NCBI GenBank assembly: GCA_964425745.1
Contig: CAYRNW010000012.1
Location: 250-64,249 of the forward strand
Reading direction: 5' to 3'
Length of the DNA: 64,000 nt
Source: an uncultured Eubacteriales bacterium
GTDB taxonomy: Bacteria; Bacillota; JAAYKD01
Below, in pieces: positions 3,001 to 39,769 of this stretch. The position numbers and the translations under genes are program-made. Below the pieces are notes generated by a model. It searched no databases. It was not told the origin of the DNA and worked only from the letters and a program-made list of their open reading frames with translations. Numbering within the stretch: the first letter of the stretch is position 1; each line of letters opens with the position of its first letter.

Positions 3001-6000
3001 GACACTGTGGCATCTGCCGGGATGGGAACACCAGCAACAAGAGATTGGCCGATTCTAAGTGAACCGCTCCACTCACCAATTCCTGTAATGATGCATGGCT
3101 GTATTGGTCCCTGAACTCCACTATAGACTTCTTTTGAATATGCTCCTGCACCTACCGCTTTTACACGGATATATTGTAAATAATCATCAACAGTCAAAGT
3201 GTATGATGTTTCAGTAGCTCCTGGAATATCTTGGAATGGCCCATCCTCCTCAACTCCGCGTTGCCATTGAATCGTTGCCTGTGCACCAGCGGGTGACAGA
3301 GTGTCCTTATTAACTGTTAATGGAGAATTGACTCTCAGGGTTCCAGTAAATGCGCCAATCGAAGTCAGCTCTATTGCAGAACTCTCAACCACCGGTCCAA
3401 CTGAATCACTAAGCCGCGAACCAGTATAAGCTCCAACGCCTGTTACCTGTACTTTGAAAGAGCAATTCAAATCATCCTCTGTTAGGGTAATAGCAGCTTT
3501 GGTAGCACCTGACACTTCAACAAAGTCGGTGCCTGAAGTATTAGATTTCAGCCATTGATAATTCACTGTTGCGCCTAGCGGAATTACTGTACCTGCATGC
3601 AAGGATTGACTGACTACAGTTGTTCCAACAATGGAAGAGATCGAGGATAAATTGCTTGGCTGAATCTGTGATGTAGGTGCACTTTCGACCCAACCTGTAT
3701 ACCCACCTGACCCTGTTGCAACAACTTTTAAAATTGAATTGTAATCTGAAGCTTGAAGCAAATAGGTTTTTGAAGTTGCACCTGGAATTTCACTATAGGT
3801 TTCTGCACCCGGCGATTTTCTTAACCACTGATAGGTTATTGAAGCCCCATATGGAGTTGTATTACCCGCGGTTAACAAACTTCCGACTCTTGTACTTCCA
3901 GTAATATCGGCGATAGCAACAACTTTATAAGGTGACGAATTAATCTCCCCAAATTTCTGACTCGTAGCACCCCCACTATAAGCAGACCCAGATGCTGCTG
4001 AGACTATTACATCGATAAAATGATCCTGATCATCCTCTGTTGTCGTATAATAATAGCTATTTGCATCATCTATTGTTTCAATTTGCCAGCCTAACAAAGG
4101 ACTATATTTATGTCTTCTCCATTGGTACGTGACGTTTGCTCCTTCAGGAACAACGGGTCCACTCGTAACAGTTCCACCAACATTGGTGCTACCTGTGATG
4201 TTGCCAACCGAAACAATGCTTTGACGGCCGGTGACCAAGAGATTTGACCCCGTCTTCGTATCAGTATAAATTCCCGTTCCGGTGACGACAGGGCGAACAT
4301 AAAAGTTATAATCGGCTGCTGTCAACGTGTAAGTCGAGGAAGTGGCTCCCGGTATATTCGTGTAATTCGTCCCAGCAGAATCGGATCTTTGCCACTGAAC
4401 AGTATAGGTCGCTGCTCCTGGATCCACTGATCCAATCGTCAAATTCTGACCGACCGTGGCAGTTCCGGTCGTGTTTGTAATCGAGTTCAGTGCAATTAGA
4501 GTTGTTCCACTGGCAGAGATGATGTTGGTGGCAGGGCTCTCGTACGAACCTTCATACGACCCTGTGCCTGTAACAACCAAGCGAATTGTTTTTCCTTCAT
4601 CTGTGGTCGTTAAAAGGTAGCTATTCAATGTGGCACTAGGGATATCTTGGAATCCGCTGCCATCGTTGCGTTGCCACTGATAACTCACAGAGGCCCCTAC
4701 GGGTGTAATGCTTCCCGCCACCAATGTTTGGTTGACAATGGTTTGACCTTGAGGTGCTAAAACCTGGCTAATGATTCCTTTAGAGATGAAATCCGTAGGG
4801 CTACTGATGACTTCACCAAAATACGTTCCAAACCCTGTTGCAATAACTTTCATGTATTTGGCTTGGTCATTTTCAGTTAACGTATACTGGCTGTATGTGG
4901 CTCCAACAATTGCCTCGTAAGTGCCATCTACTTCTGCCGATCGTAGCCACTGGTAAGAAATCGTAGAACCATGAGGTAATACCACCCCAGCGGATAAGGT
5001 TTGTCCTACTCGAGTCACACCGGTGATATCGCTAATGGAAGAGATGGCGTTGGGGCTTCCAACCGGACCGGTGTTGTTGCTATATAAGGTGTCAGAATAA
5101 CCATTTTTGCCGGTAACAGAAACACGAATAAATCGATTGTTCACATCGGTTGAAATCATATAGGTATTGGATGTTTCACCAACAATATTCACGTAGGTTG
5201 TTCCGTTATAGTATTGCCATTGGTAATTCACTTCCGCCCCAACCGGTAAAACAGTGCCTGCCGTGAGAACCTGGCCTACCTGTGCTTTACCAATCACATT
5301 AGATATGGACGTAATGGGTCTCGTTACAATAGGACCAAATGGAGGACTCGATACACCCCCTATATTAGTGTAATACGTTCCTGCTCCATATACTGTTAGA
5401 ATTAAGTGCTTGTTTAAGTCTTGATAAGTAGTTGTATACGATGAAGTGGTTGCTCCACTTATTGAAGTATACGGTCCAACAGCGAAATCCGCACGCTTCC
5501 ACTGATAGGTTACGGTTGCACCAATGGGGTTTGTCACTCCTGCTTGTATAGTTTGACCAATTTGTGGGTACCCGTTTATAGCCCCAATCGCTGTCACTTC
5601 TACGGGTTGTGCCAGAACTGGGCCGGAGAATGTGCTTAGTCGGATCCCACTGTATAAATTTGTTCCTGTGACTTGAACTTTTATAAATCTCCCAATATCG
5701 TCATTGCTGACTACATAGATATCTGATGTTGCACCGGCAATGGGTAAGTAATTCTCTCCGTTGGTATCTGAGATCAGCCACTGATATATCACAGTGGCAT
5801 CTGCTGGGGTCACAGCCCCGGCTGTTAAGACAGAAGTCACGGAAGCGGTACCACTAATCGTACCAATGGCAGTAAGGGGAGCCGTTGCAATCGGCCCAGC
5901 AAATCGACTAGTAACGGAACCCGTATAGGATCCGGAACCGGTAGCAATCACTTTAAAGAAATAACCTTTATCTGCCCCGGTGAGCACCAACGTTTTTGCA

Positions 6001-7808: not shown

Positions 7809-7912
7809 AAAAAAACCGACCGCATTCCTGCGGTCGGACGGTCATCACTTCAACAGTGTTCAGACTCCAGACTTTGCGTCCTACTCTTTCAAGTAGTTTG
7901 CCAATAAACATC
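7809..7912 (-). ncRNA. c-di-GMP-I (GEMM) riboswitch with overlapping intrinsic terminator
   Basis: Minus strand reads GGCAAACTACTT-GAAA-GAGTAG-GACGCAAAGTCTGGAGTCTGA...ATGACCGTCCGACCGCA-GGAA-TGCGGTCGG-T7. It has the GGCAAAC, GAAA tetraloop, GACGCAAA and tetraloop-receptor motifs of class I. Confidence 0.9.
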
Positions 7913-20001: not shown

Positions 20002-20112
20002 AAAAAAAGTCCGACCGCAAGAAGATTGCGGTCGGACGATCATGACACAATTTTGTGCTTTAGATTCCAGACTTTGCGTCCTATTTTTTCAAATAGTTTG
20101 CCAAAAGTTAAA
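20002..20112 (-). ncRNA. c-di-GMP-I riboswitch with overlapping terminator, upstream of the sipW operon
   Basis: Minus strand reads GGCAAACTATTT-GAAA-AAATAG-GACGCAAAGTCTGGAATCTAA...ATGATCGTCCGACCGCAA-TCTTC-TTGCGGTCGGAC-T7; nearly identical to the copy at 7809. Confidence 0.9.
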
Positions 20113-31796: not shown

Positions 31797-33401
31797 CTAT
31801 TTTATCCATCGTCCGGTAATTTTTAAGATCAATGGCCCGATTTTGGGAATTGCCTGTAATTCATCTTTTCTCAAACCTCCACTCAATAGGAGCACAAGGC
31901 CATATACAAAGATTCCCAACAGCACACTGATTGCAGTCGCTACCAGCATGGAAATGCGACCCGTCATACCATGATATGCCAGATATACGACCAGTCCCAT
32001 GAGTGAGGCGCTGATGATGGGCGAAATTACCAAGCCTTGCATGTCCACCGTCATTTCGGTGAACTGATACACTTTGTACAAATTATAACCAACGGCCACG
32101 GCGAAGCCCAACCCGGTAGCAATGGCTGCACCAAAGATATTCACATTGGGAATGGCGCACAAGACATAGGTCAACACCGTTTTGATGCCAATGCCAATCA
32201 ACATACTGACCACCGGCACTTGAATCTTGTTGATCCCCTGTAGAATACTGGCCGTTGTTTGGTACAACAACAAGAAGAGAATCACCCAGGAGTAGACTGC
32301 TATGATATTAGCTGCATCGGCAGAACCGTAAAGAATCTGGGCAACCGGTTGGCTTAAAAGATTTAATCCCAACGCTGCAGGTAGGGCGATTAGAGTGCTG
32401 ACCTTCAAAGCCAAATTGGCACGGCTGCGCATGGTTTCGACATCGTTTCTAGACATGGCATCGGTTATCGATGGAATCAACGACGCCGCCACCGCAACGG
32501 TGAGGATACTGGGCATGTTAACCAAAGGTCCGGCTTGCCCGGAATAGCGGCCAAACAATGCGGTAGCCTCTTCTACGGCGAATCCTGCCGTTTGTAATCT
32601 ACCACTGATAATCAGAGCATCGACAAATTGCATCAGTGGCCAGATCAATGAGCCCAAGGTAACGGGAATGGCCAACAAAACGATTCGTTTCAGAACCGTC
32701 ATACTGCTTTCTTCTTTCACACCCAAATCACCAATTACGGCAACTTGTTTGTGCTGGGTTCGTAAATACAGCATCAGCAAATAGATGAATGCAGCCATGG
32801 AACCCAAGGTCACTCCCAACGCTGCTCCGGTGGCCGCCGCTTCTAAGCCCCTGCCTAAGAGGATCATAGCAAGCGTTAAGATCATGATGACGCGCACCAA
32901 TTGCTCCATGGCATCGGAAATAGCACGGGGAATCATCTCTTGTCGGCCTTGAAAATAGCCGCGAAAGGGTGCCATGAGAAAGACAAAGAGCACCGCCGGT
33001 GAAATCGCGCGCAATGGCATAAGAGCACGCGGTTCTTTCAAGTTGGTTTCAACCCAAAAATTTGCCCCCAAGCCTAACATGGCCATGAGCAATAACCCTA
33101 AGGTGCCGGATAAGAGTAAAGAAAGCAATAAAACTTTGCGGGTGCTGCGTTCATCCTGAGCAGCTGTTTTCTCTGCTACCAATTTTGAAATGGATAACGG
33201 CAACCCGGTCATGCCCACCGTCATAAAGAGTAGGGCCAGATTATATGCCATTTGGTAAAGACCAATTCCCTCATCGCCGATGATTCGGGTTAAAAAGATA
33301 CGATACACAGCCCCCAAAACACGAGCAAAGGCTCCGGCCAAGGTTAAAATCATTGTATTCAACAAAAAAGACTTTTTGGTCTCTTGATTCATCGTAATCA
33401 C
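31797..33401 (-). CDS. yabM: Polysaccharide/lipid II flippase family protein (SpoVB/YabM, MOP superfamily)
   Basis: About 14 TM segments; IGDEGIGLYQMAY, RGYFQG, EQLVRV; conserved position before mazG. Confidence 0.85.
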   Translation of the reverse strand: MITMNQETKKSFLLNTMILTLAGAFARVLGAVYRIFLTRIIGDEGIGLYQMAYNLALLFMTVGMTGLPLSISKLVAEKTAAQDERSTRKVLLLSLLLSGTLGLLLMAMLGLGANFWVETNLKEPRALMPLRAISPAVLFVFLMAPFRGYFQGRQEMIPRAISDAMEQLVRVIMILTLAMILLGRGLEAAATGAALGVTLGSMAAFIYLLMLYLRTQHKQVAVIGDLGVKEESSMTVLKRIVLLAIPVTLGSLIWPLMQFVDALIISGRLQTAGFAVEEATALFGRYSGQAGPLVNMPSILTVAVAASLIPSITDAMSRNDVETMRSRANLALKVSTLIALPAALGLNLLSQPVAQILYGSADAANIIAVYSWVILFLLLYQTTASILQGINKIQVPVVSMLIGIGIKTVLTYVLCAIPNVNIFGAAIATGLGFAVAVGYNLYKVYQFTEMTVDMQGLVISPIISASLMGLVVYLAYHGMTGRISMLVATAISVLLGIFVYGLVLLLSGGLRKDELQAIPKIGPLILKITGRWIK

Positions 33402-33513
33402 CTTTTCTTTCCTTAAGGTTCAAACCCCGGGAAGTTTACAATTCTATACTGTTCTCTTTTGTGAATGCATTTCCCTTCAAAGCAGAACTCTTCTGTAAAT
33501 TTTCAAAGAAGGG

Positions 33514-33542
33514 TTGACATTGATTTCCACCTATGTTAGAAT
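33514..33542 (+). promoter_or_regulatory. Sigma-A promoter of the his operon
   Basis: TTGACA, 17 nt spacer, extended TGn-TAGAAT. Confidence 0.8.
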
Positions 33543-33573
33543 CCGTTTCAAAATCTATGAGGAGGATGCAACC

Positions 33574-33858
33574 ATGTTGACGACAACCCTTTTTAACGTC
33601 ATCACCACCGAAGCGATCATCATCGCCGCGGTTCTTTTGGCTTGCATCTCTTTCTTTGCGACCAATTTCAACACGTCCTTCAAGGCTATAGCTTCGGCTG
33701 TAGCCTTCTTTTTTATGCATCAACCCGTGGCATTGCATCTGCATCACCATCTTCATCATCACCATTGTGGTCATGAAATGGTTGCTTTGCCTACGGTTTT
33801 TGCATCAAAACACCCCGAAAGGTTACAATACCCTATTTTTAGAAGAAGCGTATTGTAA
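33574..33858 (+). CDS. His-rich leader ORF of the his operon (94 aa)
   Basis: SD GAGGAGG then ATG 33574; hydrophobic N-half, then MHQPVALHLHHHLHHHHCGHE (10 His in 21 codons); ends 28 nt before a terminator. Confidence 0.75.
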   Translation: MLTTTLFNVITTEAIIIAAVLLACISFFATNFNTSFKAIASAVAFFFMHQPVALHLHHHLHHHHCGHEMVALPTVFASKHPERLQYPIFRRSVL

Positions 33859-33885
33859 TGAACTAGATCCCTAAAAGGGTTCTTC

Positions 33886-33927
33886 GCGGAGTGGTTTTGC
33901 AAAAAGCAAAACCACTCCGCTTTTTTT
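33886..33927 (+). terminator. Attenuator terminator before hisZ
   Basis: Perfect 15-bp stem GCGGAGTGGTTTTGC-AAAAA-GCAAAACCACTCCGC plus T7. Confidence 0.9.
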
Positions 33928-33947
33928 ATTGAATAGGAGGGTTTCCC

Positions 33948-34442
33948 ATGGCTATCGACGGTTCGCTGCTCAGTTCTCGTGAAAAGGCAATTTTGGCATT
34001 ACGTCACGTGTTTCACCAATACGAATATCATCCATATTCGAAACTGCGCTGGGAAGATTATGATTTTTATGCTCAACATAAAGCGTTCTTACAAAACACT
34101 CCGATTTTGAGTTTCCACGATTACGACGGGCGGTTGTTAGCCCTCAGACCCGATGTGACGTTATCGTTGATGCGACGTTATCAGCCCGATGGTCTGATTC
34201 AAAAATGGTCGTACGAAGAAACGGTGTATCGCGTTCCGGAAGGGGCTCATGGATTTCAAGAGATGCTGCAAATGGGCGTGGAATGTTTAGGACCCCTGAC
34301 CGACAAAGAAGAGCTTGACTTGATTTGCATGGCGGGCGACACTTTAAAAGTTTTGAATGATGCTTTTCTGCTCGATATATCTCACACCACGCTTCTACCC
34401 GGTCTCCTGCTAAGCTTACAGCGGCTTCCATCGCTGGAGTAA
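33948..34442 (+). pseudogene. hisZ: ATP phosphoribosyltransferase regulatory subunit HisZ, 3'-truncated by deletion
   Basis: LLALRPDVTLS and EMLQMGVECLG motifs; homology stops near 34415 and an out-of-frame stop follows at 34440-34442. Confidence 0.8.
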
Positions 34443-35200
34443 CTCGGGTTTTTAAAGTTGGCGGGGCACAAGCCATTGCTGCTTTAGCCTATGGTACCGA
34501 AACGATCCCTAAGGTTGATAAAATCGTCGGCCCAGGCAATTGGTATGTTTCGGAAGCCAAGCGACAAGTCTTTGGGGATGTTGCGATCGATATGATTGCA
34601 GGTCCGAGTGAAATTGTGATCGTGGCAGATGAAACTTGCCCGGTTTCGCATATTGCGGCAGATTTACTTTCTCAGGCAGAACATGACCCGGCGGCGATGG
34701 CTGTTTTGATTACAGATTCCCCCACTCTAGCAGAACAGGTAAACCAAGAATTGCAGGTGCAATTAGAAGCGTTGCCCCGAAAAGAGATTGCCTCACAAGC
34801 AATGGAACGCTTCGGCAAGATTGTGGTCGTAACAGATCTTACCCAAGCAATGCAAGTGGCCAATCGTTTTGCACCAGAACATTTAGAGTTATGTGTCTCA
34901 AATCCCTGGCAAGCATTGGAGCAGGTTCGTCATGCGGGTTCAGTCTTCTTAGGAGCTTATACTCCGGAGCCGGTAGGCGATTACTGGGCGGGTGCCAATC
35001 ACACCTTGCCCACCGCCGGCAGTGCTCGCTTTTCCAGTCCTCTTTCCGTCGATGATTTTCTGAAGAAAACCCAATTCATGTATTATACGCAAAATCAACT
35101 AGCCCAGGTAGCTGAGAAAATATCCCGCTTTGCTGAATTTGAGGGCTTAGACGCCCACAGTCGCAGCATTCGAATCCGTAGCCATGGAGGACCAAAATGA
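34415..35200 (+). pseudogene. hisD: Histidinol dehydrogenase HisD, 5'-truncated
   Basis: The frame from 34415 reads [42 protein letters not shown]...DMIAGPSE...QAEHD...APEHLEL. The N-terminal part and start codon are missing. Confidence 0.88.
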
Positions 35201-39616: not shown

Positions 39617-39624
39617 CAAGAAAA

Positions 39625-39717
39625 CATATTCGGGGGAGCTTGTAGTAGCAGGCTGAGAGGAAGTTCTCAAAACTTCGACCCTTTAACCTGATGTGGGTAA
39701 TGCCACCGTAGGGAGTA
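39625..39717 (+). ncRNA. TPP riboswitch
   Basis: GGGGAGC...GCTGAGAG...GACCCTTTAACCTGAT-GTGGGTAATGCCAC-CGTAGGGA. Confidence 0.95.
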
Positions 39718-39737
39718 AGGAATCCTTGCTTGCAAGC

Positions 39738-39769
39738 GGAGAATGCCCAAAAGGCGTTCTCCTTTTTTT
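39738..39769 (+). terminator. TPP expression-platform terminator
   Basis: GGAGAATGCC-CAAAA-GGCGTTCTCC plus T7. Confidence 0.85.

Follow-up and report, generated by a model that had tools for sequence, protein, structure and literature searches.

The histidine biosynthesis genes of an uncultured Eubacteriales bacterium (contig CAYRNW010000012.1) lie within a 64,000-nucleotide stretch of DNA, hereafter the window, i.e., the whole stretch that was analyzed. They occur in the order hisZ'/'hisD-C-B-H-A-F-IE, downstream of a leader region at positions 33514–33927 that contains a promoter, a small open reading frame (ORF) rich in histidine codons, and a series of hairpins ending in a terminator just before the first his gene. 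This leader, its relatives, and its probable function are the subject of this analysis. Its features are as follows:

33514–33542, forward strand: sigma-70-type promoter, with TTGACA (33514–33519), a 17-nt spacer, and the extended -10 box TGtTAGAAT (33534–33542)
33559–33565, forward strand: Shine-Dalgarno (SD) sequence GAGGAGG of the leader ORF, 8 nt 5' of the ATG at 33574 and nearly invariant in alignments
33574–33858, forward strand: leader ORF, 94 codons plus TAA (33856–33858)
33637–33654, forward strand: candidate anti-SD segment UUGGCUUGCAUCUCUUUC, codons 22–27 ('LLACISF'), predicted to pair with the SD and start region (33559–33574)
33682–33714, forward strand: T1, an intrinsic-terminator or pause hairpin at codons 37–47, AAGGCUAUAGC-UUCG-GCUGUAGCCUU (33682–33707) followed by CUUUUUU; -16.8 kcal/mol
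33710–33810, forward strand: predicted His hairpin (segments 1:2), with its base at 33716–33731 : 33789–33804 and the U-tract 33710–33713 opposite AAAA 33807–33810
33715–33777, forward strand: His tract, 10 His codons (7 CAU, 3 CAC) in 21 codons
33802–33817, forward strand: putative antiterminator 5' strand (segment 2), GCAUCAAAACACCCCG, predicted to pair with 33887–33900
33822–33883, forward strand: hairpins Pa (33822–33859) and Pb (33865–33883), both enclosed by the antiterminator helix
33886–33927, forward strand: putative attenuator terminator T2 (segments 3:4), a perfect 15-bp stem (33886–33920) with loop AAAAA and U7
33935–34442, forward strand: SD AGGAGGG (33935–33941) and the truncated first his gene hisZ' (ATG 33948, 164 aa)

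The promoter has 11 of 12 matches together with the TG, is the sole promoter-like site within 33000–34500, and is predicted to start transcription at approximately 33549. Only 20 nt separate the end of T2 from the ATG of hisZ, leaving no space for a promoter between them. The ORF runs first through a stretch of 36 codons that we term the runway, then through T1 (codons 37–47) and the His tract (codons 48–68), and finally through the antiterminator strand and hairpin Pa (codons 69–94). Histidine is encoded at codons 49, 55, 57–59, 61–64, and 67, against a background of approximately 1.4% of codons (171/12403) in the long ORFs of the window. Of the first 48 residues, 33 are A, C, F, I, L, M, or V and two are charged, and the maximal 19-residue Kyte-Doolittle mean of the peptide is 2.38. 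The RNA of the leader region folds far more stably than shuffled sequence (z = -9.1). A first-pass annotation, made from the window alone, had drawn attention to the strong SD, the hydrophobic N-terminal half, the 10 His codons in 21, and a stop shortly before a perfect terminator. All of these are present in the sequence, with the TAA lying 27 nt before the 15-bp stem of T2. The first position of the interval that it assigned to the leader, 33514, belongs to the -35 box and is not a start codon. The same annotation had considered that translation might begin only at an internal ATG (33715). This ATG has no SD and falls on the U-tract of a hairpin, and it is the SD and ATG at 33574 that are kept in all 11 versions of the leader described below.

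Homologs of the leader occur upstream of his genes in relatives: it was found upstream of hisZ or hisG at 10 further loci (L007, L008, L009, L010, L011, L012, L014, L016, L017, and L018). Together with the window, these make up 11 distinct versions, which is all that genome and metagenome scans plus three protein searches recovered. We refer to all versions other than L018, the most distant, as the ten close versions. Five to six called peptide homologs of 91–96 aa came from uncultured Bacillota contigs of sludge, wastewater, and bioreactor metagenomes, each located between a divergent spoVB/murJ-like gene and hisZ (hisG in L011). One distant member, P0007 (108 aa), located before hisG on L018, came from a profile search against 1.8 billion representatives. 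The relatives carry a full hisZGDCBHAF... operon.

The ORF is open in all 11 versions (91–108 aa) and is the sole frame open throughout. Its reading frame is preserved by every insertion and deletion, among them +15 nt in L014, -9 nt, and +3 nt. The promoter boxes are kept in the ten close versions; in L018 the TTGACA box is retained and the -10 box has diverged. The His tract shows a ratio of nonsynonymous to synonymous divergence (pN/pS) of 0.27, with CAU and CAC interchanging synonymously, and the whole leader peptides of the relatives contain 9–14 His residues (7 of 17 codons in the tract of L018). The stop codon lies 38–42 nt past the end of the antiterminator strand and 26–33 nt before T2 in the ten close versions, and this position is kept although the last 14 residues diverge (tail pN/pS of 0.87). 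The distance from the AUG to T1 is 105–123 nt in 11/11 versions, including 117 nt in L018.

Some variation in this layout was also recorded. A 15-nt in-frame tandem duplication in the runway (ATCACCACCGAAGCG, 'ITTEA') is polymorphic, at a site corresponding to window position 33600/33601; it is present in L014 (2528–2542) and in the RNA-run contig X25, with a variant form in X28. The AUG-to-T1 distance thus tolerates a natural addition of 15 nt. In L011 (298–1297) and L018 (181–694), no hisZ intervenes and hisG comes right after the leader. In L018, the stop lies 60 nt before T2, compared to 27 nt in the window, and hisG starts approximately 57 nt after T2.

Two candidates were rejected. The locus L013 (Desulfovibrionaceae; 3001–3066), returned by the genome scan, is a spurious relative: its His-rich stretch lies within a 282-aa gene, in an antisense frame of high GC content. 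A 112-aa antisense ORF (33436–33774, reverse strand) is called on window-type contigs in place of the leader ORF, and its runs of Met and Val result from reading the His codons in reverse complement. As the relatives do not keep it open, it is an annotation artefact. Gene callers render the leader as an orphan 'hypothetical protein' or, in the strain of the window, as this spurious antisense ORF.

The distal part of the leader can form two mutually exclusive structures. In the nine-version alignment (A3) used as input to RNAalifold, the consensus consists of T1, the His hairpin, Pa, and T2, and when the 3' arm of T2 is withheld, the antiterminator is recovered instead. This agrees with the first-pass annotation, which had proposed that CAAAACACCCCG (33806–33817) pairs with the terminator 5' arm (33887–33899). 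The pairing was recovered with covariation and in a longer form, in which the blocks GCA/AAA/CRC/CCG (33802–33817) pair with the whole T2 5' arm (33887–33900), i.e., the same arm that T2 (-27.4 kcal/mol) requires. Alignment column 409 (33892) covaries with column 431 in T2 (CG/UA/UG) and also with column 320 (33812) in the antiterminator (GC in five versions, AU in three, and GU in one). Approximately 96% of cells are paired, compared to 34–49% in a control in which the partners were slid. The antiterminator adds 6–11 kcal/mol of stability to the nascent RNA in 10/10 close versions.

The His hairpin competes in turn with the antiterminator, as its 3' strand overlaps the antiterminator strand at 33801–33810. 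The fold of 33708–33812 reaches -34.8 kcal/mol, and one of its pairs (columns 226:304) shows a compensatory A-U to U-A exchange that splits the alignment 5/4. The U-tract of T1 forms the bottom of this hairpin (UUUU:AAAA in the window; 11 bp in L018). Masking the His codons during folding, as a mimic of a stalled ribosome, yields a longer antiterminator. Pa contains two compensatory pairs and has the stop codon (33856–33858) in its 3' arm. The distant version L018 refolds to the same scheme of SD:anti-SD, T1, 1:2, 2:3, and 3:4, with its His hairpin at 326–336:412–422. The alternation of segments 1:2, 2:3, and 3:4 predicted here follows the logic of the trp and his attenuators.

Taken together, the His codons, the covarying and mutually exclusive helices, and the ORF that stays open in relatives make it probable that this region is a His-sensing leader-peptide attenuator, which would control transcription of the histidine operon through the ribosome. 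The features expected of such attenuators are largely in place: a translatable leader ORF, with its SD and start codon, downstream of the promoter and ahead of the first gene, a cluster of cognate codons, a terminator before the first gene with a mutually exclusive antiterminator, and a 1:2 anti-antiterminator over the regulatory codons, the energetic discrimination of which is weak. The leader is longer in all versions (91–108 codons) than the short peptides of approximately 14–30 codons expected of attenuators; this is where it varies from them, and shortness is no mechanistic requirement. The first-pass annotation had likewise proposed a His-codon attenuator, and the covarying antiterminator and the conserved ORF and His codons speak for it. 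Its two-state stalling model stands with respect to the antiterminator; what it lacked was the His hairpin, the putative SD-masking helix, and the internal hairpin T1.

T1 is additional to the parts of a classical attenuator of this kind. It adjoins the 5' end of the His codons and lies inside the ORF in 11/11 versions. All 11 pairs are kept in the nine aligned versions, and L017 and L018 add two further G-U changes; across the 11 versions there are four transitions, each between a Watson-Crick and a G-U pair. Synonymous divergence (pS) is 0.084 in T1, against 0.38 in its flanks and 0.65–0.86 in hisZ. T1 combines a GC-containing stem of 9–11 bp with a UUCG loop, and 8 of the 9 nt that follow the GC core are U; in quality it equals the true terminators of the window. 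In 128 kb (both strands), only about nine perfect stems of at least 10 bp have a U-run behind them, and those other than T1 stand after genes or riboswitches. A conserved RNA partner or antiterminator for the 5' arm of T1 was looked for across the versions and none was found. This fits our proposal that only a translating ribosome could prevent pausing or termination there. T1 may be a coupling checkpoint that is passed only with a closely following ribosome, a role that we put forward tentatively from the sequence. In a stricter form, which we hold more tentatively still, it would be an obligatory checkpoint: an efficient terminator overridden solely by a ribosome directly behind the polymerase, which, together with one-shot ribosome loading, would synchronize transcription and translation before the sensing codons.

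The one-shot loading would be provided by the anti-SD segment. The best partner of the SD within the runway is the CU-rich motif UUGGCWUGCAUCUCU in 11/11 versions, located at +61 to +77 from the AUG and with pairing energies of -14 to -21 kcal/mol; in the minimum free energy structure of L018, the SD:anti-SD helix reaches 15 bp. These observations are no more than suggestive of an element that masks the SD.

The best reading of the leader as a whole is a two-gate attenuator, in which we infer the response to histidine and the roles of T1 and the anti-SD segment. Transcription would start at approximately 33549, with a ribosome loading onto the strong SD. After synthesis of roughly 80 nt of the ORF, the CU-rich segment at 33637–33654 could fold back on the SD and limit further loading. 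At the first gate, T1, the polymerase would pause or terminate unless the ribosome, having translated the runway of approximately 36 codons, melted the hairpin; the polymerase would then enter the His codons with the ribosome directly behind it. At the second gate, when His-tRNA is scarce, the ribosome would stall in the His tract (33715–33777) and hold the His hairpin open, allowing 33802–33817 to pair with the T2 5' arm (33887–33900), including its loop-proximal GUUUUGC. T2 could then not nucleate, and the polymerase would read into hisZ. When His-tRNA is plentiful, the ribosome would cross the antiterminator strand and stop at the TAA inside the domain enclosed by the antiterminator. The His hairpin would re-form behind it, T2 would fold, and transcription would end 20 nt before hisZ. 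Published work shows that a nearby ribosome represses terminators located within translated ORFs or immediately past them, and that termination is full when more than 27 nt separate stop and terminator (PMC4824070). The 27-nt gap between the stop and T2 is in keeping with the spacing at which repression by a terminating ribosome ceases (PMC4824070).

Several observations weigh against this reading. With 12 bp, split into four 3-bp blocks, and approximately -8 kcal/mol compared to -27 for T2, the antiterminator is of modest strength, and its partial formation is predicted even when no ribosome is stalled. The stop lies 38 nt beyond the antiterminator strand in the window, so that a terminating ribosome would not cover this strand, unlike in the E. 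coli trp and his leaders. Given a weak and partly ribosome-independent antiterminator and a distant terminating ribosome, discrimination must be kinetic or steric, with the loop-proximal GUUUUGC of T2 as the modelled toehold contested by 1:2 and 2:3. The covariation rests on approximately six independent lineages and few variable pairs, and with 11 versions its statistics are thin. Strict column covariation of the SD:anti-SD helix was sought in the alignment and not found, because registers shift between lineages. In the strain of the window, the switch is intact and probably controls a dead pathway (see below), and may no longer matter there. Finally, the RNA evidence is a handful of short metatranscriptome (Logan) contigs, the ends of which are unreliable in this region. 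In two independent metatranscriptomes, a leader-only contig extends from 33561/33566 to 33812/33814, through T1 and with no hisZ contig; these contigs end 2–4 nt past the base of the His hairpin and neither at T1 nor at T2. One RNA run holds a contig that reads from 33708 through T2 into hisZ. Low-depth contigs break at many places here, and the ends at 33812/33814 were therefore not treated as mapped 3' ends; the leader-only contigs may reflect either a break in assembly or a stable intermediate of decay, trimmed back as far as the hairpin. The contigs are compatible with the two-gate model, and with a rise in read-through when charged His-tRNA is scarce, and are weak as evidence.

A simpler account would retain only the second gate. 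The leader would then be a classical one-gate his attenuator in which T1 is a hairpin-stabilized pause, like the 1:2 pause of trpL and hisL or a NusA/NusG-dependent one, or a structural spacer, and the long ORF only carries the anti-SD and pause elements. Classical attenuators do synchronize ribosome and polymerase by pause hairpins (PMC9291695; PMC4824070), the use of the T1 U-tract as the base of the His hairpin could alone explain its conservation, and the RNA contigs run through T1. We nevertheless regard this account as somewhat unlikely, as T1 has every feature of an efficient intrinsic terminator. It differs from the two-gate attenuator solely in how frequently the polymerase is released at T1, which sequence cannot settle. 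Another account would treat T2 as the terminator of a small orphan gene, with the his operon expressed constitutively by read-through or regulated by HisR or a T-box. A small ORF followed by a terminator is indeed the default reading of gene callers. Set against this are the lack of promoter space before hisZ, the single promoter-like site, the 10 His codons in 21 before his genes, the covarying alternative helices, and the conserved stop position. The first-pass annotation had reported no T-box, in line with our scans: the Rfam models of the T-box (RF00230) as well as of His_leader (RF00514) gave no match in 33300–34100 even at E ≤ 10 (cmscan), and RF00230 gave none at its gathering score anywhere in the window. 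Nor is there a HisR-like box near the promoter beyond chance. The HisR operator (cacTTTAn6TAAAgtg; PMC9413887) has one match with one mismatch at 33435, approximately 65 nt 5' of the -35 box, and window-wide counts are below chance. We consider the orphan-gene account very improbable.

The hydrophobic N-terminal half suggests another alternative, namely that the ORF encodes a real small membrane protein with an N-terminal transmembrane helix and a His-rich, metal-binding cytoplasmic tail, acting in trans or through MifM-like coupling to membrane insertion, with attenuation secondary or absent. The first-pass annotation had raised a functional metal-binding membrane peptide or a coupling to membrane targeting. 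The length of 94 aa and the layout are MifM-like (PMC4423224), and the 19-residue hydropathy maximum is 2.2–2.8 in the ten close versions. In these versions, codon position 2 is 85% T/C and position 3 is not, and runway hydrophobicity is kept somewhat better than under simulated drift (P = 0.002–0.27 by pair), including across 46% amino-acid divergence (P = 0.002–0.09 versus the most divergent group), in a simulation that ignores RNA constraints. These two patterns, which count in favor of a peptide function, may reflect clade-specific selection for an uncharged peptide in the ten close versions. Against the membrane protein, pN/pS in the N-terminal half is 0.5–1.05, i.e., near neutral, versus 0.14–0.44 in hisZ, whereas conservation of its nucleotides exceeds that of synonymous sites in hisZ. 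The residues that never vary (VLLAC; KAxASAVAFFF) correspond to the anti-SD segment and T1 read in frame. The 39-residue N-terminal half of L018 is polar (mean Kyte-Doolittle value of -0.38, seven charged residues, 19-residue maximum of 0.38), yet L018 keeps the SD, anti-SD, T1, His tract, 1:2, 2:3, and T2. The C-terminal tail is unconserved, and a Pfam search with the leader peptide gave nothing above noise. The family is tiny and always stands directly before his genes, and the downstream genes encode cytoplasmic enzymes with no insertase. The near-neutral N-terminal half, the invariant blocks on RNA elements, and the polar L018 make a membrane or metal-binding role unlikely, and we judge the membrane-protein account to be improbable. 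The hydrophobicity is most likely in large part the reading frame over pyrimidine-rich RNA (anti-SD, T1 stem, and U-tract), combined with lineage-specific drift. By this comparison of sequences, conservation applies to a runway that is translated, has a fixed length, and carries RNA elements, and not to a transmembrane helix. The idea of a runway of fast codons was also rejected, its codon adaptation being unremarkable (13th percentile). More generally, the case is a caution: what looks like a 'membrane-like' small ORF can be a shadow cast by RNA elements rich in pyrimidines.

The operon downstream of the leader is broken in the strain of the window. Relative to L014 (97.7% nucleotide identity, intact) and L007, approximately 1.6 kb is missing, including all of hisG. 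In the region 33948–35200, hisZ is cut after codon ~157 (the 164-aa ORF) and fused to the 3' half of hisD, with the deletion junction (34403–34420) at an imperfect 18-nt direct repeat, TCTCCTGC(TAA/CCT)GCTTACA. The deleted allele is carried by 15 sludge-metagenome contigs. The genes are intact in L014, L007, L008, and L017 (hisZ 311–312 aa, hisG 214 aa, and hisD 427 aa, where the locus extends), and hisC-B-H-A-F-IE remain open in the window strain. The fusion of hisZ with hisD and the loss of hisG indicate that this strain is probably a natural auxotroph for histidine. Immediately downstream of the his operon, a thiamine pyrophosphate riboswitch (68 bits; 39622–39762, forward strand) with its own terminator (39738–39762) precedes a PF02133 (cytosine/purine-type) transporter gene. 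Two cyclic di-GMP-I riboswitches are located at 20009–20112 and 7816–7912 (both reverse strand), each ending in a strong intrinsic terminator.

Leader-peptide attenuation of his operons is textbook knowledge for enterobacteria. In Bacillota, it is thought to be difficult, as the polymerase tends to outrun the ribosome, and his genes are usually controlled by T-boxes or repressors. In trpL, the SD is probably masked after the first round of translation. The leader described here resembles hisL and trpL (Rfam His_leader, RF00514) in its translated ORF with a run of cognate codons, its three competing helices 1:2, 2:3, and 3:4, its terminator immediately before the first biosynthetic gene, its stop more than 20 nt before the terminator, and its probable SD masking. 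It differs in its length (91–108 codons versus 14–16), its regulatory codons from codon 49, its extra in-ORF terminator, a stop beyond rather than on the antiterminator strand, its Bacillota host, and the lack of any sequence or structure match to RF00514. The latter model is likewise without matches in Firmicutes (PMC9413887). His-leader attenuators have been predicted by comparative genomics in the Bacillus cereus group, Peptostreptococcaceae/Lutispora, and Erysipelotrichales (Ashniev et al., 2022; PMC9413887). Those leaders also belong to Bacillota his operons without T-box or HisR, also combine a His-codon ORF with terminator and antiterminator hairpins, and also rest on comparative genomics only. 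Compared by description, theirs are short peptides with 3–5 consecutive His directly before the hairpins, and no long runway, internal terminator, or anti-SD is reported for them.

Individual elements of the leader have precedents elsewhere. Terminators occur inside the translated leader ORFs of E. coli pyrBI and B. subtilis bmrB (yheJ), of 44 and 53 codons (PMC4824070; PMC4191407). As proposed for T1, their action depends on a closely following or stalled ribosome, and bmrB provides a Bacillota precedent. There, however, the in-ORF terminator is the regulated gate, responding to UTP or an antibiotic, and bmrB has RNA antiterminator structures, whereas T1 lacks an RNA competitor and stands before a second gate of the classical amino-acid type. 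Monitoring substrates of the MifM, CliM, and SecM type resemble the window leader in being about 95 aa long, with a hydrophobic segment near the N terminus, stalling toward the C terminus, and a regulated gene downstream, in a Bacillota (PMC4423224; PMC13183943). Their intrinsic arrest peptide senses membrane insertion or secretion, and what they control is translation of a gene for an insertase or translocon, in contrast to the codon-starvation stall, cytoplasmic pathway, and control of termination proposed here. The transmembrane segment of the ten close versions is absent in L018, and the downstream genes are hisZ or hisG, with no insertase or translocon. The tandem attenuators of Salmonella mgtCBR also place more than one ribosome-read element in one long leader that integrates more than one signal (PMC3641672). 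They use two separate short ORFs, whereas both putative gates of the window leader lie on a single ORF.

Should the obligatory T1 checkpoint hold true, it would be a principle of design by which amino-acid attenuation through the ribosome becomes usable for bacteria with otherwise uncoupled ('runaway') transcription, and it would take the place of helix 1:2 in its 'superattenuation' role. If confirmed, the leader would also offer a compact natural part with which to study or engineer transcription-translation coupling in Gram-positive bacteria. On sequence grounds, the window family is distinct from RF00514, the T-box, and the MifM class, and what is new compared to these systems is the long leader, the late sensing codons (from codon 49), the in-ORF terminator-like hairpin without an RNA competitor, and the candidate anti-SD segment. 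It suggests how one lineage may solve the problem of timing, by placing three things ahead of a His gate of the classical kind: a long translated runway, an SD closed off once loading has occurred, and a terminator passable only with a trailing ribosome.

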